DNA from: Trypanosoma brucei
Taxonomy: Eukaryota
Length of the DNA: 64,000 bases
Reading direction: 5' to 3'
NCBI GenBank assembly: GCA_000002445.1
Contig: CP000069.1
Location: 1,312,001-1,376,000 of the forward strand
The notes below the pieces were generated by a model that had not been told where the DNA came from, made no database searches, and was given only the letters and a program-made list of their open reading frames with translations. The translations under genes were made by a program, and so were the position numbers. Shown piece after piece: positions 29,708-53,931 of this stretch (position 1 is the stretch's first letter; every line of letters starts with the position of its first letter).

Positions 29708-30103
29708 TACCCAGTGACAAAAGTGTACTTTGTTCAAATTTTGTATTTTTAGATGGTTTTGAAGAAGTTTTGTGGCGCCTTTGCTCTTTCAAAGAGCGCA
29801 GATCGGTTTTACTCTCACTTCCCCTTGTCTTTCTTTCTTCAACTTATTCGCTCTCTTTCTCCGTTGCTGACCGGACCACTCATATAACAAGGGTGACTGC
29901 AACTACTGGAGCGGTTCCGTGTGATGAGTATCGGCGTCAGGCGTGATCATTTGTATTCCGTAGACGCATCAGCAGTGGGTTGTGTTTCACTACTTGTCTG
30001 ACCCACTTGGTGTGTATGACTTGTTGGTATTCTTTTTTTTTCTTCTTTTACTTAATTTTGGACATTCGCTGTGCGTGAACTGTGCTAGGCTGCTGAAGCC
30101 GTG

Positions 30104-31696
30104 ATGCCGTACCCATTGGGGTCGTCTCTTTGGGTCAAGTGCGACGACGGAGAGTGGTGGCCCGCTACCGTCCGTGAAGTGGAGACTGAGTTGCTTCTCA
30201 GCATGGGTAGTGAATACGACACCTGCATTGAATTCTATCATGACCCAGGAAACTTTTATCCACTAGACTCTACTAGCGGAGGCGTGCGACTTCTACACCT
30301 TGCAGTCGAGGAAAGAGACAAGGATGAGCAGCGCCTGTTTAATGTGAGTGCGACGAAGGAGGCCGTAAGGCGGTTACTTGAGGAACGCAGCGGCACACCC
30401 ACGGCGTCTCCCACCGAAGATTCGCAACCTTACAGTGCAGCGGAAATGCGATATATGAGGTCCCTTGTAGATTCAGTGAGCCCAGATTCTGCCGCTGTGA
30501 TGCAAAATTCGTTAAAGCAAGAGGGGGTGAATATTTCTAGAAGGAACATCCGGCGTGTGGCAAGGAAGGAACGTTCTAGCAAGTCAAAGGTTTCGCGTTC
30601 GCGCACTTCCGTGGAGGAACGGAGCACAGTACGGTTGACAAGTAGCCTGGGTTCGACACAAAGTAGTAAAAGTACCAATCCAACACCCCCATTATCTTGT
30701 GGTAGGTCTTCTTCCTCGTGGAGAAGGAGGTCTGGGGGGCGTGGTGGAGTAGAAGTGTATGGGGAGTGTGTGTTTCAGGAGGCTGTCGATGCCGCTACGT
30801 TGGATGTACTACGTGCTGAAGTCTTCGGAAATCCTGACCGGTTCGTTCTTTCACCCTTGTACCGCTTCCTTGATGTGTTAGGCGCGGTGTCAGTCGAGGG
30901 TGAAAGCATAGAAACAACACTTCCATCCCCAGCGGCAGTAAACGAAGAGCCACCTCAGGGGTTTTCCCCTTCTCGGCGTGTTCTTCTGGTTCCTCTGTCA
31001 TCGTCGTCTTACAACCACACGGATGGCTGGTTGGAGTCTTTCGAGTTTGAGAATAAGAGAATAGCCATGGAACTGTTTGTGAACGGTTTGAAGGTTGTCA
31101 CCCCTCCCAACCCGTCGGTACCCTCTGGGAGGGAAAGTGTGGCCGTAAAAACGACACCTGTTGCGGATATAACGGAAATGGTCTCGGGGAAAGAGTTGTT
31201 TTCACTGCGTGTGCACTTTACAGGACTCATGGAGGATGCGACGTTGTGGGAAGGTTATATCGTTGCTGTTTACGTGGAGCGCACCGGCGTTGATTTGCTA
31301 GCCGAGCGAATTGTCTCCAACTACCATTCGTCGCCAGCGCAACGGGAGGTTGAAGGTGTTGTTGATGTGCAGGTTAGGGCCGTCTGTCCCATAACTGCGC
31401 TGCCACTAAGTGTTCCTGTTCGTGCCTGTGGTTGTGAGCACGTTCAGTGCATTGAATTACAGGCCGTGCTGATGCACTGCGATCGTACAAATGTGTGGAA
31501 CTGCCCGCTTTGCTGGGCGCCCATGACACCAGAAACTATTGCAGTGAATTATAGGTTAAAAGAGTGGTTGGACAGTAACAGATCACGCGTAAATAAGGTA
31601 GATTTCATCGTTGAAACCCCTCCTGGTCGGAACCTGAACGTCGTTTGGAGGAAGAACGAACCGAGAAAGATTGACAACATCGAAACGCTTGAGTAG
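30104..31696 (+). CDS. Protein with a C-terminal SP-RING/MIZ zinc finger (putative SUMO E3 ligase) and an N-terminal PWWP-like motif, 530 aa
   Basis: The ORF track starts at GTG 30101. ATG 30104-30106 (MPYPLGSSLWVKCDDGEWWPATV...) was checked. The C-terminus CPITALPLSVPVRACGCEHVQCIELQAVLMHCDRTNVWNCPLCWAP matches the SP-RING pattern (CP..., R..C.H.QCF/I.L..., W.CP.C). The N-terminal LWVKCDDGEWWPATV resembles a PWWP-domain core. Confidence 0.6.
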   Translation: MPYPLGSSLWVKCDDGEWWPATVREVETELLLSMGSEYDTCIEFYHDPGNFYPLDSTSGGVRLLHLAVEERDKDEQRLFNVSATKEAVRRLLEERSGTPTASPTEDSQPYSAAEMRYMRSLVDSVSPDSAAVMQNSLKQEGVNISRRNIRRVARKERSSKSKVSRSRTSVEERSTVRLTSSLGSTQSSKSTNPTPPLSCGRSSSSWRRRSGGRGGVEVYGECVFQEAVDAATLDVLRAEVFGNPDRFVLSPLYRFLDVLGAVSVEGESIETTLPSPAAVNEEPPQGFSPSRRVLLVPLSSSSYNHTDGWLESFEFENKRIAMELFVNGLKVVTPPNPSVPSGRESVAVKTTPVADITEMVSGKELFSLRVHFTGLMEDATLWEGYIVAVYVERTGVDLLAERIVSNYHSSPAQREVEGVVDVQVRAVCPITALPLSVPVRACGCEHVQCIELQAVLMHCDRTNVWNCPLCWAPMTPETIAVNYRLKEWLDSNRSRVNKVDFIVETPPGRNLNVVWRKNEPRKIDNIETLE

Positions 31697-32593
31697 CGTG
31701 TACGCACCTTCCACATGTTCACTTTTGTATTTCGAGTGGAATAATGTCAAATAAAAACGAAACAAACTGAGGGGGGGGGGAAATAACTTGAAGCACGCAT
31801 TACGCCACGGCTTGGCGCGGCTATTCGGGTTGCCATTCACGGAATTAGTAAAATATTTAAATAATGCAGGAAAAACAAAACAAAAACACGCAGCTTCACT
31901 CTATGCATACCACAAAAGACGAACTCTTTTCTTTACTCACCGTTCTCAACTCAAAATAAAGAAAAAAAACACATGAAAAAGGCAGATATAAAAAAGGAAG
32001 CGCATGGACCCAATGGGGTCCCAACATTGGTATTAAAACCACTGTCAAACGACTATGTTGTCACCATCCGCTCCATGAAAGTAAAGCACTATTTACTTGT
32101 TCGTAAGAAAAAGTCAGTTATAAGGAAAAAACTAATCCACATGCAAATCTGTGGCGCACCGCGACATTATAACATTCGCAAAAAACACGATATGGAAAAA
32201 AACAATTAAGCAACAATATGAAACGGAGATATTATCGCAACATAACAGGAATCAAGTTTCTATCCGTCTCAAACCACTTCCACTCGCTTAAAAAAAGGTA
32301 GAAAACCAAAAAGGATATGGGTAAAGAAAAGAAATGAAATAAAATTAACACACAACAACGAAAACAAATAATAATAAATAAAATTAATGAAACAACAACA
32401 GCAAAAATGTAATGAAAAAAAAAAAATAAAAGTTTTCACCTTACTTTGCTCTTTTCCTCTCAATTCCTCTCCCTGTCGGATGTACCATTAGTTTAAAGCT
32501 ACTTCGCGTATACACCTCAGTGTACCCCTATTTCGTTTGCTCTACTCCGCAAGGTTCTACATCAATCCTACCGCCCTTGTTTCGTGAAAGGTG

Positions 32594-33787
32594 ATGTCCG
32601 TGCGCCAGATATTCTTCACGTCGGAGCATGTGAGTGAAGGTCACCCCGATAAACTATGCGATCAGGTGTCGGATGCCGTACTGGATGCATGCCTTGAGCA
32701 GGACCCGCTCTCTAAGGTTGCATGCGAGACGTGCTCAAAGACGGGGATGGTGCTTGTGTTTGGTGAGATCACAACGAAGGCTGTGATTGACTACCAGAAG
32801 GTCGTACGTGACACGGTTAAGGAGATCGGCTTCGATAACACTGAGAAGGGGTTGGACTACCGTTCACTGAACCTGCTTGTGGCCGTTGAGCAACAATCAC
32901 CCGATATTTACCAGGGCCTCGGTGACTTTGGCGGGGAGAACCTCGGTGCTGGAGACCAGGGCATGATGTTTGGTTATGCGACGAATGAGACGGAGACACT
33001 AATGCCACTCTCTTACGAACTTGCGCGCGGTCTTGCAATGACATACAGCGAGTTGCGACGCAATGGTGGTCTTCCGTGGGCGCGCCCCGACGCTAAGACG
33101 CAAGTGACAGTGCAGTACGAATATGACACCCGCGGTGGCAAGCAGTTGCTGACACCTAAGCGAGTGGCTGTGATTCTTGTTTCTGCCCAGCATGACGACG
33201 GTGTGTCAAATGAAACCATCCGCGAGGACCTGGTGAAGAAGGTAATCAGCACCACCATTCCCGCGAAGTTCCTCGATGAGAACACCAAATATCACTTGAA
33301 CCCATCTGGGCGTTTCGTCATCGGTGGCCCACATGGTGACGCTGGGTTAACTGGTCGCAAGATAATTGTTGACACGTATGGCGGTTGGGGTGCCCATGGT
33401 GGTGGCGCGTTTTCTGGCAAGGATCCCTCGAAGGTGGACCGGTCGGCAGCGTATGCTGCTCGCTGGATTGCGAAGTCTCTGGTGGCCGCAGGTCTTGCAG
33501 ATCGGTGCCTTGTACAACTTTCGTACGCCATTGGAGTTGCGGAACCGCTCAATATCCATGTCGACACATATGGCACTGGTAAGCGCGATGACGAGTATAT
33601 ATTGGGTATTGTGCAGAAAAACTTCCGACTGCGCCCGTACGACATAATCAAGGAACTTGATCTTCGTCGGCCGATATACCGCCAGACTGCCTGTTTCGGG
33701 CACTTTGGGCGTGTGGACACGAACGGGAAGGGAGGATTCACGTGGGAGGTGCCCAAAACACTAGAGGGTCTTAGTGACGTGCAGTAG
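32594..33787 (+). CDS. METK1: S-adenosylmethionine synthetase (methionine adenosyltransferase), array copy 1 of 9
   Basis: ATG 32594 (the ORF-track GTG 32591 is one codon upstream). MAT signatures are present: [76 protein letters not shown] and AYGHFGR-like CFGHFGR. It is very close to human MAT2A over its length. Confidence 0.92.
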
Positions 33788-34504
33788 TGTGTACTGCGCA
33801 CGAATAATCAGGCACACCTCCTTGCCCATCCTCACTGTTTGCGAGTAACTGCTCGCTTCCCGCCGAGTGGGTTCCTGTTGGTAACAACACCCGCCTTCGC
33901 TTATTTTTCGTTGTTACGTGATGTCATGTACTTGGCGATGTTGTGCATAAGGGAGTGGAGTAAGTAATAACAGTAGACAGGAGGTGGACGTTGCAATTAA
34001 ATTGTTTGACAAGTGTGAGGGTAGAGGGGGAAAGAATATATATATATATATATATATAACATATACCTATTTATTATTTTTAGGTATGCTATTTCGTACA
34101 CTAACGCTGTACTTTAATTCCTGGTATTTCCCACATATTGTTTCTCGGATGCGGTTTGCTCCTCATTCTTTACCTTTTTTGTTTTCTTTCGTTTTTACTC
34201 CATCATATGTTACCTTGACTGTAAACGTGTTGTTGTAAGTACTGTGACCTGTTAGCGTTACGTTTCAACTTTTTTCCCCTGCCTTACTGGGAGGTAAGTG
34301 TGATAACGACAGCAAGTGGGTACCATTATGATTGTAATTGTAAGAAATATTATTTCTGTTACATCAACCTTTGTCATTTAACTGTCACTCACGTATGGTA
34401 AGTCCTACGGTCTGTCGCCGGGGCTTTGCTTACCGTTCGTTGCTCTATCCGCTGCTGCGCACATGTAGTGAAGTACCTCGTTGTAACTGTAGTAAATAGC
34501 TAAT

Positions 34505-34604
34505 CTCCTATGTCTCCTTATTATTGTCCTTCTTTCTTCTCTTCTCTTTTGTTTTTTTTTTACCCTCAATTCCTCTCCCTGTCGGATGTACCATTAGTTT
34601 AAAG
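34505..34604 (+). promoter_or_regulatory. Polypyrimidine tract plus AG dinucleotides, a probable spliced-leader trans-splice acceptor region for the downstream METK copy. The same element recurs about 100-200 nt upstream of every array copy.
   Basis: An 85-nt run that is almost all C/T (ctcctatgtctccttattattgtccttctttcttctcttctcttttgttttttttttaccctcaattcctctccctgtcgg) is followed by AG at about 34596 and 34603, roughly 100 nt before ATG 34700. The general mechanism is established for kinetoplastids. The exact site is inferred. Confidence 0.45.
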
Positions 34605-34699
34605 CTACTTCGCGTATACACCTCAGTGTACCCCTATTTCGTTTGCTCTACTCCGCAAGGTTCTACATCAATCCTACCGCCCTTGTTTCGTGAAAGGTG

Positions 34700-35893
34700 A
34701 TGTCCGTGCGCCAGATATTCTTCACGTCGGAGCATGTGAGTGAAGGTCACCCCGATAAACTATGCGATCAGGTGTCGGATGCCGTACTGGATGCATGCCT
34801 TGAGCAGGACCCGCTCTCTAAGGTTGCATGCGAGACGTGCTCAAAGACGGGGATGGTGCTTGTGTTTGGTGAGATCACAACGAAGGCTGTGATTGACTAC
34901 CAGAAGGTCGTACGTGACACGGTTAAGGAGATCGGCTTCGATAACACTGAGAAGGGGTTGGACTACCGTTCACTGAACCTGCTTGTGGCCGTTGAGCAAC
35001 AATCACCCGATATTTACCAGGGCCTCGGTGACTTTGGCGGGGAGAACCTCGGTGCTGGAGACCAGGGCATGATGTTTGGTTATGCGACGAATGAGACGGA
35101 GACACTAATGCCACTCTCTTACGAACTTGCGCGCGGTCTTGCAATGACATACAGCGAGTTGCGACGCAATGGTGGTCTTCCGTGGGCGCGCCCCGACGCT
35201 AAGACGCAAGTGACAGTGCAGTACGAATATGACACCCGCGGTGGCAAGCAGTTGCTGACACCTAAGCGAGTGGCTGTGATTCTTGTTTCTGCCCAGCATG
35301 ACGACGGTGTGTCAAATGAAACCATCCGCGAGGACCTGGTGAAGAAGGTAATCAGCACCACCATTCCCGCGAAGTTCCTCGATGAGAACACCAAATATCA
35401 CTTGAACCCATCTGGGCGTTTTGTCATCGGTGGCCCACATGGTGACGCTGGGTTAACTGGTCGCAAGATAATTGTTGACACGTATGGCGGTTGGGGTGCC
35501 CATGGTGGTGGCGCGTTTTCTGGCAAGGATCCCTCGAAGGTGGACCGGTCGGCAGCGTATGCTGCTCGCTGGATTGCAAAGTCTCTGGTGGCCGCAGGTC
35601 TTGCAGATCGGTGCCTTGTACAACTTTCGTACGCCATTGGAGTTGCGGAACCGCTCAATATCCATGTCGACACATATGGCACTGGTAAGCGCGATGACGA
35701 GTATATATTGGGTATTGTGCAGAAAAACTTCCGACTGCGCCCGTACGACATAATCAAGGAACTTGATCTTCGTCGGCCGATATACCGCCAGACTGCCTGT
35801 TTCGGGCACTTTGGGCGTGTGGACACGAACGGGAAGGGAGGATTCACGTGGGAGGTGCCCAAAACACTAGAGGGTCTTAGTGACGTGCAGTAG
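34700..35893 (+). CDS. METK1: S-adenosylmethionine synthetase, array copy 2; carries two copy-specific synonymous changes (near 35421 and 35577)
   Basis: Identical translation to copy 1. The differences were seen by aligning the repeat units by eye. Confidence 0.92.
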
Positions 35894-36805
35894 TGTGTAC
35901 TGCGCACGAATAATCAGGCACACCTCCTTGCCCATCCTCACTGTTTGCGAGTAACTGCTCGCTTCCCGCCGAGTGGGTTCCTGTTGGTAACAACACCCGC
36001 CTTCGCTTATTTTTCGTTGTTACGTGATGTCATGTACTTGGCGATGTTGTGCATAAGGGAGTGGAGTAAGTAATAACAGTAGACAGGAGGTGGACGTTGC
36101 AATTAAATTGTTTGACAAGTGTGAGGGTAGAGGGGGAAAGAATATATATATATATATATATAACATATACCTATTTATTATTTTTAGGTATGCTATTTCG
36201 TACACTAACGCTGTACTTTAATTCCTGGTATTTCCCACATATTGTTTCTCGGATGCGGTTTGCTCCTCATTCTTTACCTTTTTTGTTTTCTTTCGTTTTT
36301 ACTCCATCATATGTTACCTTGACTGTAAACGTGTTGTTGTAAGTACTGTGACCTGTTAGCGTTACGTTTCAACTTTTTTCCCCTGCCTTACTGGGAGGTA
36401 AGTGTGATAACGACAGCAAGTGGGTACCATTATGATTGTAATTGTAAGAAATATTATTTCTGTTACATCAACCTTTGTCATTTAACTGTCACTCACGTAT
36501 GGTAAGTCCTACGGTCTGTCGCCGGGGCTTTGCTTACCGTTCGTTGCTCTATCCGCTGCTGCGCACATGTGGTGAAGTACCTCGTTGTAACTGTAGTAAA
36601 TAGCTAATCTCCTATGTCTCCTTATTATTGTCCTTCTTTCTTCTCTTCTCTTTTGTTTTTTTTTTTTACCCTCAATTCCTCTCCCTGTCGGATGTACCAT
36701 TAGTTTAAAGCTACTTCGCGTATACACCTCAGTGTACCCCTATTTCGTTTGCTCTACTCCGCAAGGTTCTACATCAATCCTACCGCCCTTGTTTCGTGAA
36801 AGGTG

Positions 36806-37999
36806 ATGTCCGTGCGCCAGATATTCTTCACGTCGGAGCATGTGAGTGAAGGTCACCCCGATAAACTATGCGATCAGGTGTCGGATGCCGTACTGGATGC
36901 ATGCCTTGAGCAGGACCCGCTCTCTAAGGTTGCATGCGAGACGTGCTCAAAGACGGGGATGGTGCTTGTGTTTGGTGAGATCACAACGAAGGCTGTGATT
37001 GACTACCAGAAGGTCGTACGTGACACGGTTAAGGAGATCGGCTTCGATAACACTGAGAAGGGGTTGGACTACCGTTCACTGAACCTGCTTGTGGCCGTTG
37101 AGCAACAATCACCCGATATTTACCAGGGCCTCGGTGACTTTGGCGGGGAGAACCTCGGTGCTGGAGACCAGGGCATGATGTTTGGTTATGCGACGAATGA
37201 GACGGAGACACTAATGCCACTCTCTTACGAACTTGCGCGCGGTCTTGCAATGACATACAGCGAGTTGCGACGCAATGGTGGTCTTCCGTGGGCGCGCCCC
37301 GACGCTAAGACGCAAGTGACAGTGCAGTACGAATATGACACCCGCGGTGGCAAGCAGTTGCTGACACCTAAGCGAGTGGCTGTGATTCTTGTTTCTGCCC
37401 AGCATGACGACGGTGTGTCAAATGAAACCATCCGCGAGGACCTGGTGAAGAAGGTAATCAGCACCACCATTCCCGCGAAGTTCCTCGATGAGAACACCAA
37501 ATATCACTTGAACCCATCTGGGCGTTTCGTCATCGGTGGCCCACATGGTGACGCTGGGTTAACTGGTCGCAAGATAATTGTCGACACGTATGGCGGTTGG
37601 GGTGCCCATGGTGGTGGCGCGTTTTCTGGCAAGGATCCCTCGAAGGTGGACCGGTCGGCAGCGTATGCTGCTCGCTGGATTGCGAAGTCTCTGGTGGCCG
37701 CAGGTCTTGCAGATCGGTGCCTTGTACAACTTTCGTACGCCATTGGAGTTGCGGAACCGCTCAATATCCATGTCGACACATATGGCACTGGTAAGCGCGA
37801 TGACGAGTATATATTGGGTATTGTGCAGAAAAACTTCCGACTGCGCCCGTACGACATAATCAAGGAACTTGATCTTCGTCGGCCGATATACCGCCAGACT
37901 GCCTGTTTCGGGCACTTTGGGCGTGTGGACACGAACGGGAAGGGAGGATTCACGTGGGAGGTGCCCAAAACACTAGAGGGTCTTAGTGACGTGCAGTAG
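36806..37999 (+). CDS. METK1: S-adenosylmethionine synthetase, array copy 3; has a synonymous GTT>GTC change (attgtcgacacg) shared with copy 5
   Basis: Identical translation to copy 1. Confidence 0.92.
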
Positions 38000-38909
38000 T
38001 GTGTACTGCGCACGAATAATCAGGCACACCTCCTTGCCCATCCTCACTGTTTGCGAGTAACTGCTCGCTTCCCGCCGAGTGGGTTCCTGTTGGTAACAAC
38101 ACCCGCCTTCGCTTATTTTTCGTTGTTACGTGATGTCATGTACTTGGCGATGTTGTGCATAAGGGAGTGGAGTAAGTAATAACAGTAGACAGGAGGTGGA
38201 CGTTGCAATTAAATTGTTTGACAAGTGTGAGGGTAGAGGGGGAAAGAATATATATATATATATATAACATATACCTATTTATTATTTTTAGGTATGCTAT
38301 TTCGTACACTAACGCTGTACTTTAATTCCTGGTATTTCCCACATATTGTTTCTCGGATGCGGTTTGCTCCTCATTCTTTACCTTTTTTGTTTTCTTTCGT
38401 TTTTACTCCATCATATGTTACCTTGACTGTAAACGTGTTGTTGTAAGTACTGTGACCTGTTAGCGTTACGTTTCAACTTTTTTCCCCTGCCTTACTGGGA
38501 GGTAAGTGTGATAACGACAGCAAGTGGGTACCATTATGATTGTAATTGTAAGAAATATTATTTCTGTTACATCAACCTTTGTCATTTAACTGTCACTCAC
38601 GTATGGTAAGTCCTACGGTCTGTCGCCGGGGCTTTGCTTACCGTTCGTTGCTCTATCCGCTGCTGCGCACATGTAGTGAAGTACCTCGTTGTAACTGTAG
38701 TAAATAGCTAATCTCCTATGTCTCCTTATTATTGTCCTTCTTTCTTCTCTTCTCTTTTGTTTTTTTTTTTTACCCTCAATTCCTCTCCCTGTCGGATGTA
38801 CCATTAGTTTAAAGCTACTTCGCGTATACACCTCAGTGTACCCCTATTTCGTTTGCTCTACTCCGCAAGGTTCTACATCAATCCTACCGCCCTTGTTTCG
38901 TGAAAGGTG

Positions 38910-40103
38910 ATGTCCGTGCGCCAGATATTCTTCACGTCGGAGCATGTGAGTGAAGGTCACCCCGATAAACTATGCGATCAGGTGTCGGATGCCGTACTGG
39001 ATGCATGCCTTGAGCAGGACCCGCTCTCTAAGGTTGCATGCGAGACGTGCTCAAAGACGGGGATGGTGCTTGTGTTTGGTGAGATCACAACGAAGGCTGT
39101 GATTGACTACCAGAAGGTCGTACGTGACACGGTTAAGGAGATCGGCTTCGATAACACTGAGAAGGGGTTGGACTACCGTTCACTGAACCTGCTTGTGGCC
39201 GTTGAGCAACAATCACCCGATATTTACCAGGGCCTCGGTGACTTTGGCGGGGAGAACCTCGGTGCTGGAGACCAGGGCATGATGTTTGGTTATGCGACGA
39301 ATGAGACGGAGACACTAATGCCACTCTCTTACGAACTTGCGCGCGGTCTTGCAATGACATACAGCGAGTTGCGACGCAATGGTGGTCTTCCGTGGGCGCG
39401 CCCCGACGCTAAGACGCAAGTGACAGTGCAGTACGAATATGACACCCGCGGTGGCAAGCAGTTGCTGACACCTAAGCGAGTGGCTGTGATTCTTGTTTCT
39501 GCCCAGCTTGACGACGGTGTGTCAAATGAAACCATCCGCGAGGACCTGGTGAAGAAGGTAATCAGCACCACCATTCCCGCGAAGTTCCTCGATGAGAACA
39601 CCAAATATCACTTGAACCCATCTGGGCGTTTCGTCATCGGTGGCCCACATGGTGACGCTGGGTTAACTGGTCGCAAGATAATTGTTGACACGTATGGCGG
39701 TTGGGGTGCCCATGGTGGTGGCGCGTTTTCTGGCAAGGATCCCTCGAAGGTGGACCGGTCGGCAGCGTATGCTGCTCGCTGGATTGCGAAGTCTCTGGTG
39801 GCCGCAGGTCTTGCAGATCGGTGCCTTGTACAACTTTCGTACGCCATTGGAGTTGCGGAACCGCTCAATATCCATGTCGACACATATGGCACTGGTAAGC
39901 GCGATGACGAGTATATATTGGGTATTGTGCAGAAAAACTTCCGACTGCGCCCGTACGACATAATCAAGGAACTTGATCTTCGTCGGCCGATATACCGCCA
40001 GACTGCCTGTTTCGGGCACTTTGGGCGTGTGGACACGAACGGGAAGGGAGGATTCACGTGGGAGGTGCCCAAAACACTAGAGGGTCTTAGTGACGTGCAG
40101 TAG
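38910..40103 (+). CDS. METK1: S-adenosylmethionine synthetase, array copy 4; non-synonymous His>Leu in the conserved SAQ-H-DDGV motif (CAT>CTT at 39508)
   Basis: The translation reads SAQLDDGV instead of SAQHDDGV. The nucleotide context gcccagcttgacgac contrasts with gcccagcatgacgac in the other eight copies. Confidence 0.9.
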
Positions 40104-41015
40104 TGTGTACTGCGCACGAATAATCAGGCACACCTCCTTGCCCATCCTCACTGTTTGCGAGTAACTGCTCGCTTCCCGCCGAGTGGGTTCCTGTTGGTAA
40201 CAACACCCGCCTTCGCTTATTTTTCGTTGTTACGTGATGTCATGTACTTGGCGATGTTGTGCATAAGGGAGTGGAGTAAGTAATAACAGTAGACAGGAGG
40301 TGGACGTTGCAATTAAATTGTTTGACAAGTGTGAGGGTAGAGGGGGAAAGAATATATATATATATATATATAACATATACCTATTTATTATTTTTAGGTA
40401 TGCTATTTCGTACACTAACGCTGTACTTTAATTCCTGGTATTTCCCACATATTGTTTCTCGGATGCGGTTTGCTCCTCATTCTTTACCTTTTTTGTTTTC
40501 TTTCGTTTTTACTCCATCATATGTTACCTTGACTGTAAACGTGTTGTTGTAAGTACTGTGACCTGTTAGCGTTACGTTTCAACTTTTTTCCCCTGCCTTA
40601 CTGGGAGGTAAGTGTGATAACGACAGCAAGTGGGTACCATTATGATTGTAATTGTAAGAAATATTATTTCTGTTACATCAACCTTTGTCATTTAACTGTC
40701 ACTCACGTATGGTAAGTCCTACGGTCTGTCGCCGGGGCTTTGCTTACCGTTCGTTGCTCTATCCGCTGCTGCGCACATGTGGTGAAGTACCTCGTTGTAA
40801 CTGTAGTAAATAGCTAATCTCCTATGTCTCCTTATTATTGTCCTTCTTTCTTCTCTTCTCTTTTGTTTTTTTTTTTTACCCTCAATTCCTCTCCCTGTCG
40901 GATGTACCATTAGTTTAAAGCTACTTCGCGTATACACCTCAGTGTACCCCTATTTCGTTTGCTCTACTCCGCAAGGTTCTACATCAATCCTACCGCCCTT
41001 GTTTCGTGAAAGGTG

Positions 41016-42209
41016 ATGTCCGTGCGCCAGATATTCTTCACGTCGGAGCATGTGAGTGAAGGTCACCCCGATAAACTATGCGATCAGGTGTCGGATGCCG
41101 TACTGGATGCATGCCTTGAGCAGGACCCGCTCTCTAAGGTTGCATGCGAGACGTGCTCAAAGACGGGGATGGTGCTTGTGTTTGGTGAGATCACAACGAA
41201 GGCTGTGATTGACTACCAGAAGGTCGTACGTGACACGGTTAAGGAGATCGGCTTCGATAACACTGAGAAGGGGTTGGACTACCGTTCACTGAACCTGCTT
41301 GTGGCCGTTGAGCAGCAATCACCCGATATTTACCAGGGCCTCGGTGACTTTGGCGGGGAGAACCTCGGTGCTGGAGACCAGGGCATGATGTTTGGTTATG
41401 CGACGAATGAGACGGAGACACTAATGCCACTCTCTTACGAACTTGCGCGCGGTCTTGCAATGACATACAGCGAGTTGCGACGCAATGGTGGTCTTCCGTG
41501 GGCGCGCCCCGACGCTAAGACGCAAGTGACAGTGCAGTACGAATATGACACCCGCGGTGGCAAGCAGTTGCTGACACCTAAGCGAGTGGCTGTGATTCTT
41601 GTTTCTGCCCAGCATGACGACGGTGTGTCAAATGAAACCATCCGCGAGGACCTGGTGAAGAAGGTAATCAGCACCACCATTCCCGCGAAGTTCCTCGATG
41701 AGAACACCAAATATCACTTGAACCCATCTGGGCGTTTCGTCATCGGTGGCCCACATGGTGACGCTGGGTTAACTGGTCGCAAGATAATTGTCGACACGTA
41801 TGGCGGTTGGGGTGCCCATGGTGGTGGCGCGTTTTCTGGCAAGGATCCCTCGAAGGTGGACCGGTCGGCAGCGTATGCTGCTCGCTGGATTGCGAAGTCT
41901 CTGGTGGCCGCAGGTCTTGCAGATCGGTGCCTTGTACAACTTTCGTACGCCATTGGAGTTGCGGAACCGCTCAATATCCATGTCGACACATATGGCACTG
42001 GTAAGCGCGATGACGAGTATATATTGGGTATTGTGCAGAAAAACTTCCGACTGCGCCCGTACGACATAATCAAGGAACTTGATCTTCGTCGGCCGATATA
42101 CCGCCAGACTGCCTGTTTCGGGCACTTTGGGCGTGTGGACACGAACGGGAAGGGAGGATTCACGTGGGAGGTGCCCAAAACACTAGAGGGTCTTAGTGAC
42201 GTGCAGTAG
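41016..42209 (+). CDS. METK1: S-adenosylmethionine synthetase, array copy 5; synonymous CAA>CAG near 41313 and the GTT>GTC change shared with copy 3
   Basis: Identical translation to copy 1. Confidence 0.92.
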
Positions 42210-43121
42210 TGTGTACTGCGCACGAATAATCAGGCACACCTCCTTGCCCATCCTCACTGTTTGCGAGTAACTGCTCGCTTCCCGCCGAGTGGGTTCCTGT
42301 TGGTAACAACACCCGCCTTCGCTTATTTTTCGTTGTTACGTGATGTCATGTACTTGGCGATGTTGTGCATAAGGGAGTGGAGTAAGTAATAACAGTAGAC
42401 AGGAGGTGGACGTTGCAATTAAATTGTTTGACAAGTGTGAGGGTAGAGGGGGAAAGAATATATATATATATATATATAACATATACCTATTTATTATTTT
42501 TAGGTATGCTATTTCGTACACTAACGCTGTACTTTAATTCCTGGTATTTCCCACATATTGTTTCTCGGATGCGGTTTGCTCCTCATTCTTTACCTTTTTT
42601 GTTTTCTTTCGTTTTTACTCCATCATATGTTACCTTGACTGTAAACGTGTTGTTGTAAGTACTGTGACCTGTTAGCGTTACGTTTCAACTTTTTTCCCCT
42701 GCCTTACTGGGAGGTAAGTGTGATAACGACAGCAAGTGGGTACCATTATGATTGTAATTGTAAGAAATATTATTTCTGTTACATCAACCTTTGTCATTTA
42801 ACTGTCACTCACGTATGGTAAGTCCTACGGTCTGTCGCCGGGGCTTTGCTTACCGTTCGTTGCTCTATCCGCTGCTGCGCACATGTAGTGAAGTACCTCG
42901 TTGTAACTGTAGTAAATAGCTAATCTCCTATGTCTCCTTATTATTGTCCTTCTTTCTTCTCTTCTCTTTTGTTTTTTTTTTTTACCCTCAATTCCTCTCC
43001 CTGTCGGATGTACCATTAGTTTAAAGCTACTTCGCGTATACACCTCAGTGTACCCCTATTTCGTTTGCTCTACTCCGCAAGGTTCTACATCAATCCTACC
43101 GCCCTTGTTTCGTGAAAGGTG

Positions 43122-44315
43122 ATGTCCGTGCGCCAGATATTCTTCACGTCGGAGCATGTGAGTGAAGGTCACCCCGATAAACTATGCGATCAGGTGTCGG
43201 ATGCCGTACTGGATGCATGCCTTGAGCAGGACCCGCTCTCTAAGGTTGCATGCGAGACGTGCTCAAAGACGGGGATGGTGCTTGTGTTTGGTGAGATCAC
43301 AACGAAGGCTGTGATTGACTACCAGAAGGTCGTACGTGACACGGTTAAGGAGATCGGCTTCGATAACACTGAGAAGGGGTTGGACTACCGTTCACTGAAC
43401 CTGCTTGTGGCCGTTGAGCAACAATCACCCGATATTTACCAGGGCCTCGGTGACTTTGGCGGGGAGAACCTCGGTGCTGGAGACCAGGGCATGATGTTTG
43501 GTTATGCGACGAATGAGACGGAGACACTAATGCCACTCTCTTACGAACTTGCGCGCGGTCTTGCAATGACATACAGCGAGTTGCGACGCAATGGTGGTCT
43601 TCCGTGGGCGCGCCCCGACGCTAAGACGCAAGTGACAGTGCAGTACGAATATGACACCCGCGGTGGCAAGCAGTTGCTGACACCTAAGCGAGTGGCTGTG
43701 ATTCTTGTTTCTGCCCAGCATGACGACGGTGTGTCAAATGGAACCATCCGCGAGGACCTGGTGAAGAAGGTAATCAGCACCACCATTCCCGCGAAGTTCC
43801 TCGATGAGAACACCAAATATCACTTGAACCCATCTGGGCGTTTCGTCATCGGTGGCCCACATGGTGACGCTGGGTTAACTGGTCGCAAGATAATTGTTGA
43901 CACGTATGGCGGTTGGGGTGCCCATGGTGGTGGCGCGTTTTCTGGCAAGGATCCCTCGAAGGTGGACCGGTCGGCAGCGTATGCTGCTCGCTGGATTGCG
44001 AAGTCTCTGGTGGCCGCAGGTCTTGCAGATCGGTGCCTTGTACAACTTTCGTACGCCATTGGAGTTGCGGAACCGCTCAATATCCATGTCGACACATATG
44101 GCACTGGTAAGCGCGATGACGAGTATATATTGGGTATTGTGCAGAAAAACTTCCGACTGCGCCCGTACGACATAATCAAGGAACTTGATCTTCGTCGGCC
44201 GATATACCGCCAGACTGCCTGTTTCGGGCACTTTGGGCGTGTGGACACGAACGGGAAGGGAGGATTCACGTGGGAGGTGCCCAAAACACTAGAGGGTCTT
44301 AGTGACGTGCAGTAG
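43122..44315 (+). CDS. METK1: S-adenosylmethionine synthetase, array copy 6; non-synonymous Glu>Gly (GAA>GGA at 43741, SNETIRED>SNGTIRED)
   Basis: Translation difference seen in the ORF track, and the nucleotide difference (tcaaatggaacc versus tcaaatgaaacc) seen in the sequence. Confidence 0.9.
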
Positions 44316-45226
44316 TGTGTACTGCGCACGAATAATCAGGCACACCTCCTTGCCCATCCTCACTGTTTGCGAGTAACTGCTCGCTTCCCGCCGAGTGGGT
44401 TCCTGTTGGTAACAACACCCGCCTTCGCTTATTTTTCGTTGTTACGTGATGTCATGTACTTGGCGATGTTGTGCATAAGGGAGTGGAGTAAGTAATAACA
44501 GTAGACAGGAGGTGGACGTTGCAATTAAATTGTTTGACAAGTGTGAGGGTAGAGGGGGAAAGAATATATATATATATATATATAACATATACCTATTTAT
44601 TATTTTTAGGTATGCTATTTCGTACACTAACGCTGTACTTTAATTCCTGGTATTTCCCACATATTGTTTCTCGGATGCGGTTTGCTCCTCATTCTTTACC
44701 TTTTTTGTTTTCTTTCGTTTTTACTCCATCATATGTTACCTTGACTGTAAACGTGTTGTTGTAAGTACTGTGACCTGTTAGCGTTACGTTTCAACTTTTT
44801 TCCCCTGCCTTACTGGGAGGTAAGTGTGATAACGACAGCAAGTGGGTACCATTATGATTGTAATTGTAAGAAATATTATTTCTGTTACATCAACCTTTGT
44901 CATTTAACTGTCACTCACGTATGGTAAGTCCTACGGTCTGTCGCCGGGGCTTTGCTTACCGTTCGTTGCTCTATCCGCTGCTGCGCACATGTGGTGAAGT
45001 ACCTCGTTGTAACTGTAGTAAATAGCTAATCTCCTATGTCTCCTTATTATTGTCCTTCTTTCTTCTCTTCTCTTTTGTTTTTTTTTTTACCCTCAATTCC
45101 TCTCCCTGTCGGATGTACCATTAGTTTAAAGCTACTTCGCGTATACACCTCAGTGTACCCCTATTTCGTTTGCTCTACTCCGCAAGGTTCTACATCAATC
45201 CTACCGCCCTTGTTTCGTGAAAGGTG

Positions 45227-46420
45227 ATGTCCGTGCGCCAGATATTCTTCACGTCGGAGCATGTGAGTGAAGGTCACCCCGATAAACTATGCGATCAGGT
45301 GTCGGATGCCGTACTGGATGCATGCCTTGAGCAGGACCCGCTCTCTAAGGTTGCATGCGAGACGTGCTCAAAGACGGGGATGGTGCTTGTGTTTGGTGAG
45401 ATCACAACGAAGGCTGTGATTGACTACCAGAAGGTCGTACGTGACACGGTTAAGGAGATCGGCTTCGATAACACTGAGAAGGGGTTGGACTACCGTTCAC
45501 TGAACCTGCTTGTGGCCGTTGAGCAACAATCACCCGATATTTACCAGGGCCTCGGTGACTTTGGCGGGGAGAACCTCGGTGCTGGAGACCAGGGCATGAT
45601 GTTTGGTTATGCGACGAATGAGACGGAGACACTAATGCCACTCTCTTACGAACTTGCGCGCGGTCTTGCAATGACATACAGCGAGTTGCGACGCAATGGT
45701 GGTCTTCCGTGGGCGCGCCCCGACGCTAAGACGCAAGTGACAGTGCAGTACGAATATGACACCCGCGGTGGCAAGCAGTTGCTGACACCTAAGCGAGTGG
45801 CTGTGATTCTTGTTTCTGCCCAGCATGACGACGGTGTGTCAAATGAAACCATCCGCGAGGACCTGGTGAAGAAGGTAATCAGCACCACCATTCCCGCGAA
45901 GTTCCTCGATGAGAACACCAAATATCACTTGAACCCATCTGGGCGTTTCGTCATCGGTGGCCCACATGGTGACGCTGGGTTAACTGGTCGCAAGATAATT
46001 GTTGACACGTATGGCGGTTGGGGTGCCCATGGTGGTGGCGCGTTTTCTGGCAAGGATCCCTCGAAGGTGGACCGGTCGGCAGCGTATGCTGCTCGCTGGA
46101 TTGCGAAGTCTCTGGTGGCCGCAGGTCTTGCAGATCGGTGCCTTGTACAACTTTCGTACGCCATTGGAGTTGCGGAACCGCTCAATATCCATGTCGACAC
46201 ATATGGCACTGGTAAGCGCGATGACGAGTATATATTGGGTATTGTGCAGAAAAACTTCCGACTGCGCCCGTACGACATAATCAAGGAACTTGATCTTCGT
46301 CGGCCGATATACCGCCAGACTGCCTGTTTCGGGCACTTTGGGCGTGTGGACACGAACGGGAAGGGAGGATTCACGTGGGAGGTGCCCAAAACACTAGAGG
46401 GTCTTAGTGACGTGCAGTAG
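45227..46420 (+). CDS. METK1: S-adenosylmethionine synthetase, array copy 7
   Basis: Identical translation to copy 1. Confidence 0.92.
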
Positions 46421-47330
46421 TGTGTACTGCGCACGAATAATCAGGCACACCTCCTTGCCCATCCTCACTGTTTGCGAGTAACTGCTCGCTTCCCGCCGAG
46501 TGGGTTCCTGTTGGTAACAACACCCGCCTTCGCTTATTTTTCGTTGTTACGTGATGTCATGTACTTGGCGATGTTGTGCATAAGGGAGTGGAGTAAGTAA
46601 TAACAGTAGACAGGAGGTGGACGTTGCAATTAAATTGTTTGACAAGTGTGAGGGTAGAGGGGGAAAGAATATATATATATATATATAACATATACCTATT
46701 TATTATTTTTAGGTATGCTATTTCGTACACTAACGCTGTACTTTAATTCCTGGTATTTCCCACATATTGTTTCTCGGATGCGGTTTGCTCCTCATTCTTT
46801 ACCTTTTTTGTTTTCTTTCGTTTTTACTCCATCATATGTTACCTTGACTGTAAACGTGTTGTTGTAAGTACTGTGACCTGTTAGCGTTACGTTTCAACTT
46901 TTTTCCCCTGCCTTACTGGGAGGTAAGTGTGATAACGACAGCAAGTGGGTACCATTATGATTGTAATTGTAAGAAATATTATTTCTGTTACATCAACCTT
47001 TGTCATTTAACTGTCACTCACGTATGGTAAGTCCTACGGTCTGTCGCCGGGGCTTTGCTTACCGTTCGTTGCTCTATCCGCTGCTGCGCACATGTGGTGA
47101 AGTACCTCGTTGTAACTGTAGTAAATAGCTAATCTCCTATGTCTCCTTATTATTGTCCTTCTTTCTTCTCTTCTCTTTTGTTTTTTTTTTTTACCCTCAA
47201 TTCCTCTCCCTGTCGGATGTACCATTAGTTTAAAGCTACTTCGCGTATACACCTCAGTGTACCCCTATTTCGTTTGCTCTACTCCGCAAGGTTCTACATC
47301 AATCCTACCGCCCTTGTTTCGTGAAAGGTG

Positions 47331-48524
47331 ATGTCCGTGCGCCAGATATTCTTCACGTCGGAGCATGTGAGTGAAGGTCACCCCGATAAACTATGCGATC
47401 AGGTGTCGGATGCCGTACTGGATGCATGCCTTGAGCAGGACCCGCTCTCTAAGGTTGCATGCGAGACGTGCTCAAAGACGGGGATGGTGCTTGTGTTTGG
47501 TGAGATCACAACGAAGGCTGTGATTGACTACCAGAAGGTCGTACGTGACACGGTTAAGGAGATCGGCTTCGATAACACTGAGAAGGGGTTGGACTACCGT
47601 TCACTGAACCTGCTTGTGGCCGTTGAGCAACAATCACCCGATATTTACCAGGGCCTCGGTGACTTTGGCGGGGAGAACCTCGGTGCTGGAGACCAGGGCA
47701 TGATGTTTGGTTATGCGACGAATGAGACGGAGACACTAATGCCACTCTCTTACGAACTTGCGCGCGGTCTTGCAATGACATACAGCGAGTTGCGACGCAA
47801 TGGTGGTCTTCCGTGGGCGCGCCCCGACGCTAAGACGCAAGTGACAGTGCAGTACGAATATGACACCCGCGGTGGCAAGCAGTTGCTGACACCTAAGCGA
47901 GTGGCTGTGATTCTTGTTTCTGCCCAGCATGACGACGGTGTGTCAAATGAAACCATCCGCGAGGACCTGGTGAAGAAGGTAATCAGCACCACCATTCCCG
48001 CGAAGTTCCTCGATGAGAACACCAAATATCACTTGAACCCATCTGGGCGTTTCGTCATCGGTGGCCCACATGGTGACGCTGGGTTAACTGGTCGCAAGAT
48101 AATTGTTGACACGTATGGCGGTTGGGGTGCCCATGGTGGTGGCGCGTTTTCTGGCAAGGATCCCTCGAAGGTGGACCGGTCGGCAGCGTATGCTGCTCGC
48201 TGGATTGCGAAGTCTCTGGTGGCCGCAGGTCTTGCAGATCGGTGCCTTGTACAACTTTCGTACGCCATTGGAGTTGCGGAACCGCTCAATATCCATGTCG
48301 ACACATATGGCACTGGTAAGCGCGATGACGAGTATATATTGGGTATTGTGCAGAAAAACTTCCGACTGCGCCCGTACGACATAATCAAGGAACTTGATCT
48401 TCGTCGGCCGATATACCGCCAGACTGCCTGTTTCGGGCACTTTGGGCGTGTGGACACGAACGGGAAGGGAGGATTCACGTGGGAGGTGCCCAAAACACTA
48501 GAGGGTCTTAGTGACGTGCAGTAG
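47331..48524 (+). CDS. METK1: S-adenosylmethionine synthetase, array copy 8
   Basis: Identical translation to copy 1. Confidence 0.92.
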
Positions 48525-49434
48525 TGTGTACTGCGCACGAATAATCAGGCACACCTCCTTGCCCATCCTCACTGTTTGCGAGTAACTGCTCGCTTCCCGC
48601 CGAGTGGGTTCCTGTTGGTAACAACACCCGCCTTCGCTTATTTTTCGTTGTTACGTGATGTCATGTACTTGGCGATGTTGTGCATAAGGGAGTGGAGTAA
48701 GTAATAACAGTAGACAGGAGGTGGACGTTGCAATTAAATTGTTTGACAAGTGTGAGGGTAGAGGGGGAAAGAATATATATATATATATATAACATATACC
48801 TATTTATTATTTTTAGGTATGCTATTTCGTACACTAACGCTGTACTTTAATTCCTGGTATTTCCCACATATTGTTTCTCGGATGCGGTTTGCTCCTCATT
48901 CTTTACCTTTTTTGTTTTCTTTCGTTTTTACTCCATCATATGTTACCTTGACTGTAAACGTGTTGTTGTAAGTACTGTGACCTGTTAGCGTTACGTTTCA
49001 ACTTTTTTCCCCTGCCTTACTGGGAGGTAAGTGTGATAACGACAGCAAGTGGGTACCATTATGATTGTAATTGTAAGAAATATTATTTCTGTTACATCAA
49101 CCTTTGTCATTTAACTGTCACTCACGTATGGTAAGTCCTACGGTCTGTCGCCGGGGCTTTGCTTACCGTTCGTTGCTCTATCCGCTGCTGCGCACATGTA
49201 GTGAAGTACCTCGTTGTAACTGTAGTAAATAGCTAATCTCCTATGTCTCCTTATTATTGTCCTTCTTTCTTCTCATCTCTTTTGTTTTTTTTTTTTACCC
49301 TCAATTCCTCTCCCTGTCGGATGTACCATTAGTTTAAAGCTACTTCGCGTATACACCTCAGTGTACCCCTATTTCGTTTGCTCTACTCCGCAAGGTTCTA
49401 CATCAATCCTACCGCCCTTGTTTCGTGAAAGGTG

Positions 49435-50628
49435 ATGTCCGTGCGCCAGATATTCTTCACGTCGGAGCATGTGAGTGAAGGTCACCCCGATAAACTATGC
49501 GATCAGGTGTCGGATGCCGTACTGGATGCATGCCTTGAGCAGGACCCGCTCTCTAAGGTTGCATGCGAGACGTGCTCAAAGACGGGGATGGTGCTTGTGT
49601 TTGGTGAGATCACAACGAAGGCTGTGATTGACTACCAGAAGGTCGTACGTGACACGGTTAAGGAGATCGGCTTCGATAACACTGAGAAGGGGTTGGACTA
49701 CCGTTCACTGAACCTGCTTGTGGCCGTTGAGCAACAATCACCCGATATTTACCAGGGCCTCGGTGACTTTGGCGGGGAGAACCTCGGTGCTGGAGACCAG
49801 GGCATGATGTTTGGTTATGCGACGAATGAGACGGAGACACTAATGCCACTCTCTTACGAACTTGCGCGCGGTCTTGCAATGACATACAGCGAGTTGCGAC
49901 GCAATGGTGGTCTTCCGTGGGCGCGCCCCGACGCTAAGACGCAAGTGACAGTGCAGTACGAATATGACACCCGCGGTGGCAAGCAGTTGCTGACACCTAA
50001 GCGAGTGGCTGTGATTCTTGTTTCTGCCCAGCATGACGACGGTGTGTCAAATGAAACCATCCGCGAGGACCTGGTGAAGAAGGTAATCAGCACCACCATT
50101 CCCGCGAAGTTCCTCGATGAGAACACCAAATATCACTTGAACCCATCTGGGCGTTTCGTCATCGGTGGCCCACATGGTGACGCTGGGTTAACTGGTCGCA
50201 AGATAATTGTTGACACGTATGGCGGTTGGGGTGCCCATGGTGGTGGCGCGTTTTCTGGCAAGGATCCCTCGAAGGTGGACCGGTCGGCAGCGTATGCTGC
50301 TCGCTGGATTGCGAAGTCTCTGGTGGCCGCAGGTCTTGCAGATCGGTGCCTTGTACAACTTTCGTACGCCATTGGAGTTGCGGAACCGCTCAATATCCAT
50401 GTCGACACATATGGCACTGGTAAGCGCGATGACGAGTATATATTGGGTATTGTGCAGAAAAACTTCCGACTGCGCCCGTACGACATAATCAAGGAACTTG
50501 ATCTTCGTCGGCCGATATACCGCCAGACTGCCTGTTTCGGGCACTTTGGGCGTGTGGACACGAACGGGAAGGGAGGATTCACGTGGGAGGTGCCCAAAAC
50601 ACTAGAGGGTCTTAGTGACGTGCAGTAG
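49435..50628 (+). CDS. METK1: S-adenosylmethionine synthetase, array copy 9 (last); downstream sequence diverges from the repeat after ~50727
   Basis: Identical translation to copy 1. The 3' flank shares about 100 bp with the other units and then becomes unique AT-rich sequence with (TA)n tracts. Confidence 0.92.
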
Positions 50629-50920
50629 TGTGTACTGCGCACGAATAATCAGGCACACCTCCTTGCCCATCCTCACTGTTTGCGAGTAACTGCTCGCTTC
50701 CCGCCGAGTGGGTTCCTGTTGGTAACAACTTTATTTGTTATATAGGAGAGGGCATTGTTTTTTAAATTAATATTTTTTTTGTTAATATATATATATATAT
50801 ATATATATATTTTAAATTTTTTGTCTCTATGTTTTTTTTTCTGCTGTTATAATATATATATATATATATATGTATAATTTTTTTCTTTAAAAATTTTAGG
50901 GTTTTCGTTCTGCTGTTTTT

Positions 50921-51664: not shown

Positions 51665-51772
51665 GCTCTTTTACTTGTTGATAACGAGGTGGGGTTTCGT
51701 GGTTGCTATGTTTCTCTACAGTCTGCAATGTGTTTTACCGAGTCCTACTGTTTCCACTCTCTGTGGTAGGTG

Positions 51773-53182
51773 ATGAGGCCACGATGTGGCTACGCAAACG
51801 CCGTGGTCACTTTTTCGTCGTTGCCATGTTTGTTGACAACGTTCTGCTTCGGTGCGGAGACTTGTGGCGCATTTACTGCGGCGATAGTGTGCCCACAGCG
51901 ATGGTGCGCGGCGTTAGGTGAAAGGAGGTTGAGCCGAAGGCGTTACTCCGCGGCAAACACAAAAGGACGGTGCAAACACGTTTATAACATCATTAATTCA
52001 TTGAAACTGGTTCCCAAAGCGGTGCTCGCTTCAGAATTTGATAAATTGCATCCACGGGATAAGTTGGACGTGAAACGGGCGCTCGTACGAAGACGTAGCC
52101 GTCGGAGTAGTTGTTTGCCTGTTTTTAAAAGTGCGTTGTTCAATAGAAAGTACTTTTTCAGGGAGGCAGATCTAACGGAAGATAGTACGCTCGGTCGTGG
52201 TCCTGGGGGGCAGGCAACGAACAGGCGGAAACAGACGGCTATTGTGAAGCATGTGCCAACTGGAATTACCGTGAAGTTCAGCAAGTTTCCCTCTTACTGG
52301 CTTAACAGGAGGGCTGCACGGGATGTCCTCAACCTGCAGCTGGAGGAACGTATGCTCGGGTCGAAATCGGAGCTCGGCCGTATACGGGATCTGCGAGAGA
52401 GGCGGCGTTTGTGGCGGCTCAGAACAACGTGTAAATTAGTAGAAAGGGCAAGTAAAATCGCTGCAAAACGTAGTCAGAGACATGAGTTCCATTCCGTACT
52501 TACCAACCAACAACCCCTTTCCCGCGTGGCGGTTCTGCAGTTGGACCTTGACCAAAGTAAACAGCCGATGTACTTGTCTGACCTCTTCGATAGGGAGTGC
52601 GGGCAGTGGTGGCCGTTGCTTTCGAAAGCCTTCGTGAGAATAAATGCTGAATCATCGAATGAAAAAAGCGCTAAAGTACCGGATATATTGTTCTACACGT
52701 TCCCTTCAGTTCGCAGGCACGGCGAAAGTGTAACTTCCGTCGAGCAGTATGAGATGAACCAGGTTAAAAAATGTGCCGCCGATGAAGTATGCCTCGCGAA
52801 TGTGAAACGTGCGTTGAAGTGCTTTGTTGAACTGTTTGGTCTTCGGTTGTACGAGAAGCCAACGACAACCGCAAAAAACTGTAGTGTTTTGGTGCTCGGA
52901 CGTGACGGTCTCAACTGGATGGAGTTCCGGGGGAGGATGGTGGATTCAAGTGGTTTGATGACCCCATTAGCACTTGCTTGCTTTGCTCATGTGACATTGA
53001 GTCTTGCACAGCTTCGGTGTGCGCGTGAGGTGAATGCAATCCGGTCCTTCTTTCGTCGCGAAGCAAAAGCAGGGGTGCCGGGGAAATGGGCAGTACAGGG
53101 TCAAGAGGGGATTACTGAGGTGTTAAGGTGCTGTGAGCTCCATGAAGAGCATCACCCGACTGGCGTGGACGGTGTTGTGTAA
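51773..53182 (+). CDS. GGQ-motif protein of the class-I release factor / peptidyl-tRNA hydrolase (RF-1 domain, ICT1-like) family with a long basic C-terminal extension, 469 aa; possibly mitochondrial
   Basis: The ORF track starts at GTG 51770. ATG 51773 was checked. The core DSTLGRGPGGQATNRRKQTAIVKHVPTGITVKFSKFPSYWLNRRAARDVLNLQLEERM carries the universally conserved GGQ and the basic helix that follows it. The N-terminus is Arg-rich, like a mitochondrial presequence. Confidence 0.55.
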   Translation: MRPRCGYANAVVTFSSLPCLLTTFCFGAETCGAFTAAIVCPQRWCAALGERRLSRRRYSAANTKGRCKHVYNIINSLKLVPKAVLASEFDKLHPRDKLDVKRALVRRRSRRSSCLPVFKSALFNRKYFFREADLTEDSTLGRGPGGQATNRRKQTAIVKHVPTGITVKFSKFPSYWLNRRAARDVLNLQLEERMLGSKSELGRIRDLRERRRLWRLRTTCKLVERASKIAAKRSQRHEFHSVLTNQQPLSRVAVLQLDLDQSKQPMYLSDLFDRECGQWWPLLSKAFVRINAESSNEKSAKVPDILFYTFPSVRRHGESVTSVEQYEMNQVKKCAADEVCLANVKRALKCFVELFGLRLYEKPTTTAKNCSVLVLGRDGLNWMEFRGRMVDSSGLMTPLALACFAHVTLSLAQLRCAREVNAIRSFFRREAKAGVPGKWAVQGQEGITEVLRCCELHEEHHPTGVDGVV

Positions 53183-53427
53183 CCACACGGCTTGCAGTTG
53201 TGGTGGTTGTTTTCTTATCAATTGTCGTGAGTTTCTTGAGTGCGTTTCCCCTCTCCCTCTCCCTCTCCCTTTTCTTCTCTCTGTCTGCTTCGAGCCTGCT
53301 ACCGCTCTCCGTCCTATCCTCTCCAAAGCATATGCTTCCTTGCTCGATTTTGATGGTCTAGCAATTCTGTGGTTTTGAAGAACCAGGTTGTATATTTTTT
53401 TGCCCTTTTCTTACCATCAAGACGGTG

Positions 53428-53931
53428 ATGCAAGCGGAAGAGACCACAGCCGTAGAGGTTCTTCAAGACGCCCCAGTACAAGAGACCATGCAGTCTTGTC
53501 TTCACTATGTCCGATACTTTGCTGGCCACACGGGTCGTTATGGAAACGAGTTTCTGGAGTTTGACATACGAGATGACGGCACGTTGAAGTATGGAAATAA
53601 CAGCCGTTACCGAAACGAGAATATCATCAAGAAGCAAGCGCGTATCTCACCTGCCGTTTTGGAGGAGATCAAACGTCTCATTATCCTCTCTGGAATTCTA
53701 GAACGCGACGATGAATGTTGGCCACAACCGGACCGGAACGGGCGACAAGAGCTCGAGATACACCTTGGAGACACCCACATTTCATTTGTAACCAACAAAA
53801 TAACTTCTTTAAGTGAAGTTGAGAGCCCTGACAAACCCAAGGGACTGGACACCTTCTACTATTTTGTGCGAGATATTAAAGCACTGGTACTTGCGCTTGT
53901 TTCGCTGCATTTTAAAATCAAGGCGTGGTAG
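53428..53931 (+). CDS. MAGO: Mago nashi homologue (exon-junction complex core subunit). It is 167 aa from the first ATG, but the conserved Mago core begins at the internal ATG 53488 (147 aa).
   Basis: The translation aligns along its whole length with animal Mago/MAGOH. Compare [55 protein letters not shown]...[32 protein letters not shown]...[29 protein letters not shown] with human [43 protein letters not shown]...[32 protein letters not shown]...[29 protein letters not shown]. Confidence 0.85.

Follow-up and report, generated by a model that had tools for sequence, protein, structure and literature searches.

Does a histidine-to-leucine difference in one member of a tandem gene array mark an altered enzyme, a modifier of its sister subunits or an error in the sequence? 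The question is raised by the METK (AdoMet synthetase) genes in a window of 64,000 nucleotides (the whole stretch of DNA analysed here, to which all positions refer). The window belongs to chromosome 6 of Trypanosoma brucei brucei TREU927 and its METK proteins match TREU927 entries exactly in an exact-sequence look-up. H200L, in the fourth of nine copies, is either a sequence error or a missense change of an ordinary kind, private to one copy of a well-known dosage array. Its biological weight is very small: eight wild-type copies remain and copy 4 is unmarked as specialised.

Nine METK copies and one leucine codon

According to the ORF list of the window, nine open reading frames of 398 codons lie head to tail on the + strand, at a spacing of 2104-2106 bp. 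Each opens with a GTG one codon 5′ of the real ATG and its product is an S-adenosylmethionine synthetase of 397 residues. Together, the nine repeat units (2104-2106 bp each) make up a tandem array at 32452..50728 on the + strand, as delimited by repeat identity, which begins at 32452, 139 nt 5′ of the start of the copy-1 ORF, and stops at ~50728, ~100 nt 3′ of the copy-9 stop codon. This is the same locus as the nine-copy TbAdoMetSyn array, Tb927.6.4840-Tb927.6.4920, named by Patel et al. 2018 (PMC6221367); recombinant wild-type TbAdoMetSyn is active (PMC6221367).

The nine coding sequences, all on the + strand, are 99.8-100% identical. Copy 1 (32594..33787) represents the array consensus, with His200, and is identical to copies 7 (45227..46420), 8 (47331..48524) and 9 (49435..50628), the last of which runs into the end of the repeat; the consensus protein exactly matches AAZ12042-44/46 and others. 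Copy 2 (34700..35893) has two private synonymous changes, 35422 C>T and 35578 G>A. A synonymous T>C is common to copies 3 (36806..37999, at 37582) and 5 (41016..42209, at 41792), and copy 5 also has a private synonymous A>G at 41315. The remaining two copies differ in protein sequence: copy 6 (43122..44315) carries a private missense A>G at 43741, giving E207G (AAZ12047.1 / XP_845606.1 / Q586G1), and copy 4 (38910..40103, 397 residues and a stop codon) is the sole copy with Leu200 (AAZ12045.1 / XP_845604.1 / UniRef100_Q586F9).

At 39500-39515, copy 4 reads TGCCCAGCTTGACGAC. Numbered from the ATG at 38910, codon 200 occupies 39507-39509 and is CTT (Leu) in this copy and CAT (His) in the eight others, the changed base being an A>T transversion at 39508 that turns SAQHDDGV into SAQLDDGV. 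Both the substitution and the retention of His by all other copies had been read from the letters of the window beforehand, and both were confirmed, with CAT at the equivalent codon in all eight. H200L is the sole nucleotide difference between the coding sequence of copy 4 and those of copies 1, 7, 8 and 9, and the intergenic DNA on both sides of copy 4 holds zero private changes.

The H200L protein is already known as a deposited entry, under the accessions given above. An exact-sequence look-up in the assembly index returned no gene on record for the Leu200 protein, and a cluster look-up returned TREU927 NCBI and UniRef entries only; a literature search found no paper treating Tb927.6.4870 or Tb927.6.4890 individually. 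Although genes Tb927.6.4840-4920 are generally handled as copies of one sequence, the deposited proteins of copy 4 (H200L) and copy 6 (E207G) each carry a private missense difference. Such variants have separate UniProt and RefSeq entries, which can mislead proteomics databases or variant calling; to know this is of minor practical use to those who curate or work with the TREU927 sequence.

In its overall architecture, the copy-4 protein is that of an intact methionine adenosyltransferase (MAT). All three Pfam MAT domains score above their gathering thresholds—PF00438 at 140.1 bits (cut-off 33.1), PF02772 at 136.9 (29) and PF02773 at 222.4 (25)—and the motifs EGHPDK (from residue 15), GAGDQG (118), RPDAKTQ (164) and GGGAFSGKD (269) are unchanged. 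EGHPDK includes the catalytic His, and RPDAKTQ the ribose-binding Asp and Lys (roles as given in PMC3853416). Rat MAT1A and human MAT2A are the best-scoring solved chains for METK (E about 1e-159) and, as METK shares 60-65% identity with solved MATs, its fold is already fixed. Rat MAT1A, human MAT2A and E. coli MetK are like METK in their three Pfam domains and catalytic motifs, but have His at the aligned position where copy 4 has Leu.

Conservation and likely role of residue 200

To gauge conservation, the consensus METK protein was scored against 1.84 billion representatives of clusters formed at 50% identity, and the best 150 were aligned. In the column of His200, 141 of the 147 representatives with a residue there have His (96%) and none has Leu. 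The column ranks 32nd of 397 in conservation; in the same sample Lys168 (E. coli K165) does equally well and the catalytic His17 slightly worse. The six rows without His comprise two misaligned fragments, one Gln, two Thr and one Ser; the Gln row is a degenerate MAT-like protein that deviates in 24 conserved columns, catalytic ones included, whereas the two Thr rows and the Ser row are otherwise normal MATs encoded on metagenome contigs. Closer to home, Q-H occurs in 125/125 other proteins, made up of members of the T. brucei-group cluster and the 120 closest homologues, largely from kinetoplastids.

METK His200 aligns with H210 of rat MAT1A and H209 of human MAT2A in a phmmer comparison with solved chains. 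In E. coli MetK it presumably corresponds to H189 (mature numbering), a placement in an alignment that reproduces the known K165 and H14. The claim that the changed residue is a conserved histidine of the family thus stands: the column is near-invariant, and Leu is found in neither the 147 representatives nor the 125 relatives. Replacement by Leu lowers the PF02772 score by 4.6 bits, from 141.5 in the consensus to the value given above for copy 4. What copy 4 lacks is therefore the near-invariant His of an S-x-Q-H block, a feature that is conserved in the MAT family and not formally defining for it. Among the natural MATs without His here, we looked for a compensating change and found no coupled partner residue; one of these proteins (P0245) has zero other deviations in conserved columns and another (P0175) has two.

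A conserved residue may serve catalysis or structure. The active-site residues given for E. coli and human MAT are His14, Phe230, Ile102*, Asp163, Asp238, Gln98*, Lys269* and Arg229 (PMC3853416), and the equivalent of His200 is not on this list (PMC3853416). A literature search that included MAT structure papers found no discussion of MAT2A His209, E. coli H189 or rat H210.

By the secondary structure and pLDDT of an AF2 model of moderate confidence (mean pLDDT 77.3, with 93 and 89 for the blocks around residue 200), strand 185-200 ends at H200. It pairs in a hairpin with strand 163-178, and a short loop and helix 206-221 come after it. The partner strand, 163-178, carries Asp166 (E. coli D163, which binds the ribose hydroxyls) and Lys168 (E. 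coli K165, a phosphate- and substrate-binding residue). Elsewhere in the model, pLDDT falls below 50 at residues 102-121 (the gating loop) and 244-279 (the segment with GGGAFSGKD), leaving the region of residue 200 unaffected; low confidence there is likely due to modelling of a monomer without its dimer partner or ligands and to a shallow alignment of 33 sequences.

From the strand position in the model, and because the natural substitutes are small and polar (Thr, Thr and Ser), we infer that His200 would play a structural part from the second shell, by hydrogen bonding or by capping the strand, and none in catalysis. With Leu the hydrogen bond would be lost, so a defect in folding, stability or activity is likely. 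The H200L subunit is thus most likely a hypomorph in which, going by the model, folding, stability or activity would be lowered with no new function gained. The sequence-only reading had gone further, to a functionally altered or dead enzyme. Strong conservation of the residue argues for an alteration; its place off the active-site list and the Thr or Ser of three intact MATs set limits to that reading, and a dead enzyme, though plausible, is unproven.

Young mutation or sequence error

If copy 4 encodes a damaged subunit, how did the change come to stand in one member of so uniform an array? We lean towards a real, young copy-private mutation, which we favour over a consensus or assembly error. 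Concerted evolution would have kept the array otherwise uniform, and the CAT>CTT of copy 4 would have arisen recently. In an array transcribed polycistronically, one copy would supply ~1/9 of METK mRNA, or ~1/18 if the change is heterozygous, and selection against a defective copy would be weak because the deleterious change sits in one of 9 copies (18 per diploid). H200L would then persist until gene conversion or unequal crossing-over removed the copy-private base, and the net change in cellular AdoMet synthesis would be small.

That the array evolves in concert follows from strain-specific substitutions fixed across all of its copies. In TREU927 the His200 codon is CAT in all copies except copy 4 (33191-33193 in copy 1, for example), whereas it is CAC, also His, in 11/11 copies recovered from other T. 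brucei-group sequences: four from GCA_003543875.1, six from the T. b. gambiense assembly DAL972 and one collapsed unit from Logan ERR034315. Similarly, residue 219 is Ser in 9/9 TREU927 copies and Asn (G656A) in the seven full-length copies compared from other assemblies. The METK array (Tb47) has been placed among the invariant arrays, silent changes excepted (Jackson 2007), which agrees with concerted evolution and counts against a real missense difference. In an array so homogenised, a copy-private change is either very young or not real.

The second of these possibilities, which the sequence-only reading had also allowed as a base-calling error, deserves to be taken seriously. On that account, the T at 39508 arose in the consensus calling or assembly of a 2005 Sanger-era reference, all nine copies encode His200 and the Leu entry is an artefact; we consider this quite possible, at somewhat less than an even chance. 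The change is a singleton transversion, at a residue conserved in 96% of representatives, to an amino acid never observed there. It is one of two transversions in the array, both of them singletons, while the two differences common to more than one copy are both transitions. A search for the same allele in other strains came back empty, with Leu200 in 0/11 copies from the three other data sets. It was absent, too, from the rest of the 90%-identity cluster, whose seven distinct sequences—the TREU927 consensus, the two TREU927 variants, T. b. gambiense DAL972, T. equiperdum, a low-quality DAL972 copy and a Logan contig—have Leu200 in copy 4 alone.

Repeats of 2.1 kb that are nearly identical are also hard to assemble, and tandem arrays may be collapsed or unresolved in an assembly (Jackson 2007). 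The DAL972 array (FN554969.1) has six copies, with two 100-N gaps, two 5′-truncated copies and a ‘low quality’ copy of 414 residues with a 1-bp indel; the array of GCA_003543875.1 (CM010677.1) has four, the last frameshifted by a 1-bp indel and without a gene call; and in the short-read assembly Logan ERR034315 the array has collapsed to one unit of 2139 bp. Because the copies range from 4 to 9 per assembly, with visible defects, the copy number of the species is not reliably known from assemblies.

Against a sequence error stand the quality of the record and the pattern of variation within the array. The TREU927 record is finished-grade sequence, and the strain is diploid and field-derived, so copy-private variants are to be expected. 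Across the units, eight single-base columns are variable (six in coding sequence, two intergenic), alongside two simple-repeat length differences. Six single-base differences are private to one copy in the ~18 kb array, five of them in coding sequence, of which two are missense (H200L and E207G). The nominal standard for finished sequence is fewer than one error per 10 kb; six private differences in ~18 kb exceed that figure. Together with the missense share of the private coding differences, 2/5 against 76% expected for random changes (P=0.09), this suggests that part of them are real and have been filtered by selection.

These points tip us towards the young mutation, with one reservation about its address: since the 2.1 kb near-identical repeat is longer than a Sanger read, a real variant might still sit in a copy other than copy 4. 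If the allele is real, it would offer a small, clean case in which the number of copies shields a mutation, probably a deleterious one, under concerted evolution.

Dosage, co-assembly and neighbouring features

A third explanation grants the mutation a function. Copy 4 would be a specialised subunit, a nascent pseudoenzyme or dominant modifier that co-assembles with wild-type METK and damps or tunes AdoMet synthesis. Were this true, the Leu200 copy would be expressed and maintained for that effect, as an incipient pseudoenzyme inside a dosage array, in a parasite whose adjacent polyamine pathway is already pseudoenzyme-regulated. The substituted His is highly conserved, and in MATs the active sites are located at the dimer interface, which lets one subunit affect the other (PMC3793261). 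R264H is known as a dominant allele of MAT1A (PMC7271947), and pseudoenzyme paralogues act in a neighbouring pathway of T. brucei (PMC6221367).

Neither precedent carries over well. The R264H allele, associated with hypermethioninaemia, is like H200L in being a missense change in an enzyme with interface-shared active sites, where an effect on the partner is possible in principle. However, MAT1A R264 lies at the dimer interface and forms a salt bridge with Glu57 of the partner subunit (PMC3793261), and its allele makes up half of the subunits, whereas H200L accounts for at most 1/9 of METK and affects a residue off the active-site list. The AdoMetDC prozyme shares with the proposed modifier its organism, its pathway neighbourhood and the principle that an active enzyme is modulated by an inactive paralogue. 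Known prozymes, though, are diverged paralogues conserved across species, separately from their active partners, whereas copy 4 differs by one base and is private to one strain and one copy; it is no diverged conserved paralogue that has lost its catalytic residues.

Dosage sets a further limit. The flanks of copy 4 are the same as those of its sister copies, from which its mRNA would be ~1/9 of METK mRNA. With the variant at 1/9 of subunits, we calculate that 79% of dimers and 62% of tetramers have no variant subunit, which limits poisoning to about 21% of dimers; an unstable H200L protein would cost at most 11% of dosage. The earlier suggestion of a dominant modifier thus finds no support, and we judge it very improbable, given that a single substitution is the whole difference and leaves the listed catalytic and binding motifs intact, that nothing in its regulatory or UTR sequence is private to copy 4 and that Leu200 is absent from the DAL972, GCA_003543875.1, T. 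equiperdum and Logan sequences.

The other missense difference in the array, E207G in copy 6 (GAA>GGA at 43740-43742), falls at the start of helix 206-221 in the AF2 model. MATs differ at residue 207 (E 61, D 29, K 15, G 5 and others; conservation rank 257/397), for which reason the change looks tolerable; PF02772 scores 139.3 bits, 2.2 below the consensus. Judged by this family variation, E207G is probably tolerated.

Between the genes, the intergenic regions (~909 bp, in eight full units) contain two variable columns: one divides the units 4:4 between A and G, and the other differs in unit 8 alone. The A/G dimorphism lies at 34467, 36571, 38675, 40781 and equivalents (column 1922 of the repeat unit) and runs A G A G A G G A in unit order. 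This near-alternation, together with the T/C difference common to copies 3 and 5, might stem from two subtypes of the repeat, from an assembly that mixes the two haplotypes or from arbitrary placement of reads. The units differ in length solely by the number of repeats in an (AT)n tract (~34036-34039) and the length of a poly-T tract (~34551), with equivalents in each unit. The intergenic poly-T tract, ~140 nt 5′ of the ATG, may be the polypyrimidine tract for trans-splicing.

An antisense ORF of 169 amino acids recurs on the - strand inside every METK copy (33292-33801, 35398-35907, 37504-38013, 39608-40117 and so on). It recurs because the DNA itself repeats, and it overlaps the region coding for the conserved C-terminal domain; there is no reason to think that it is a gene.

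Gene calls in the DAL972 and GCA_003543875.1 loci place a zf-MIZ protein upstream of the array, at 30101-31696 on the + strand. Downstream, also on the + strand, are an RF-1 family protein (51770-53182), Mago nashi (53425-53931) and a protein kinase (55566-57737). Across the whole window, all long ORFs that correspond to called genes in related loci lie on the + strand. Kinetoplastid genes are organised in polycistronic transcription units, and this gene order is consistent with one such unit.
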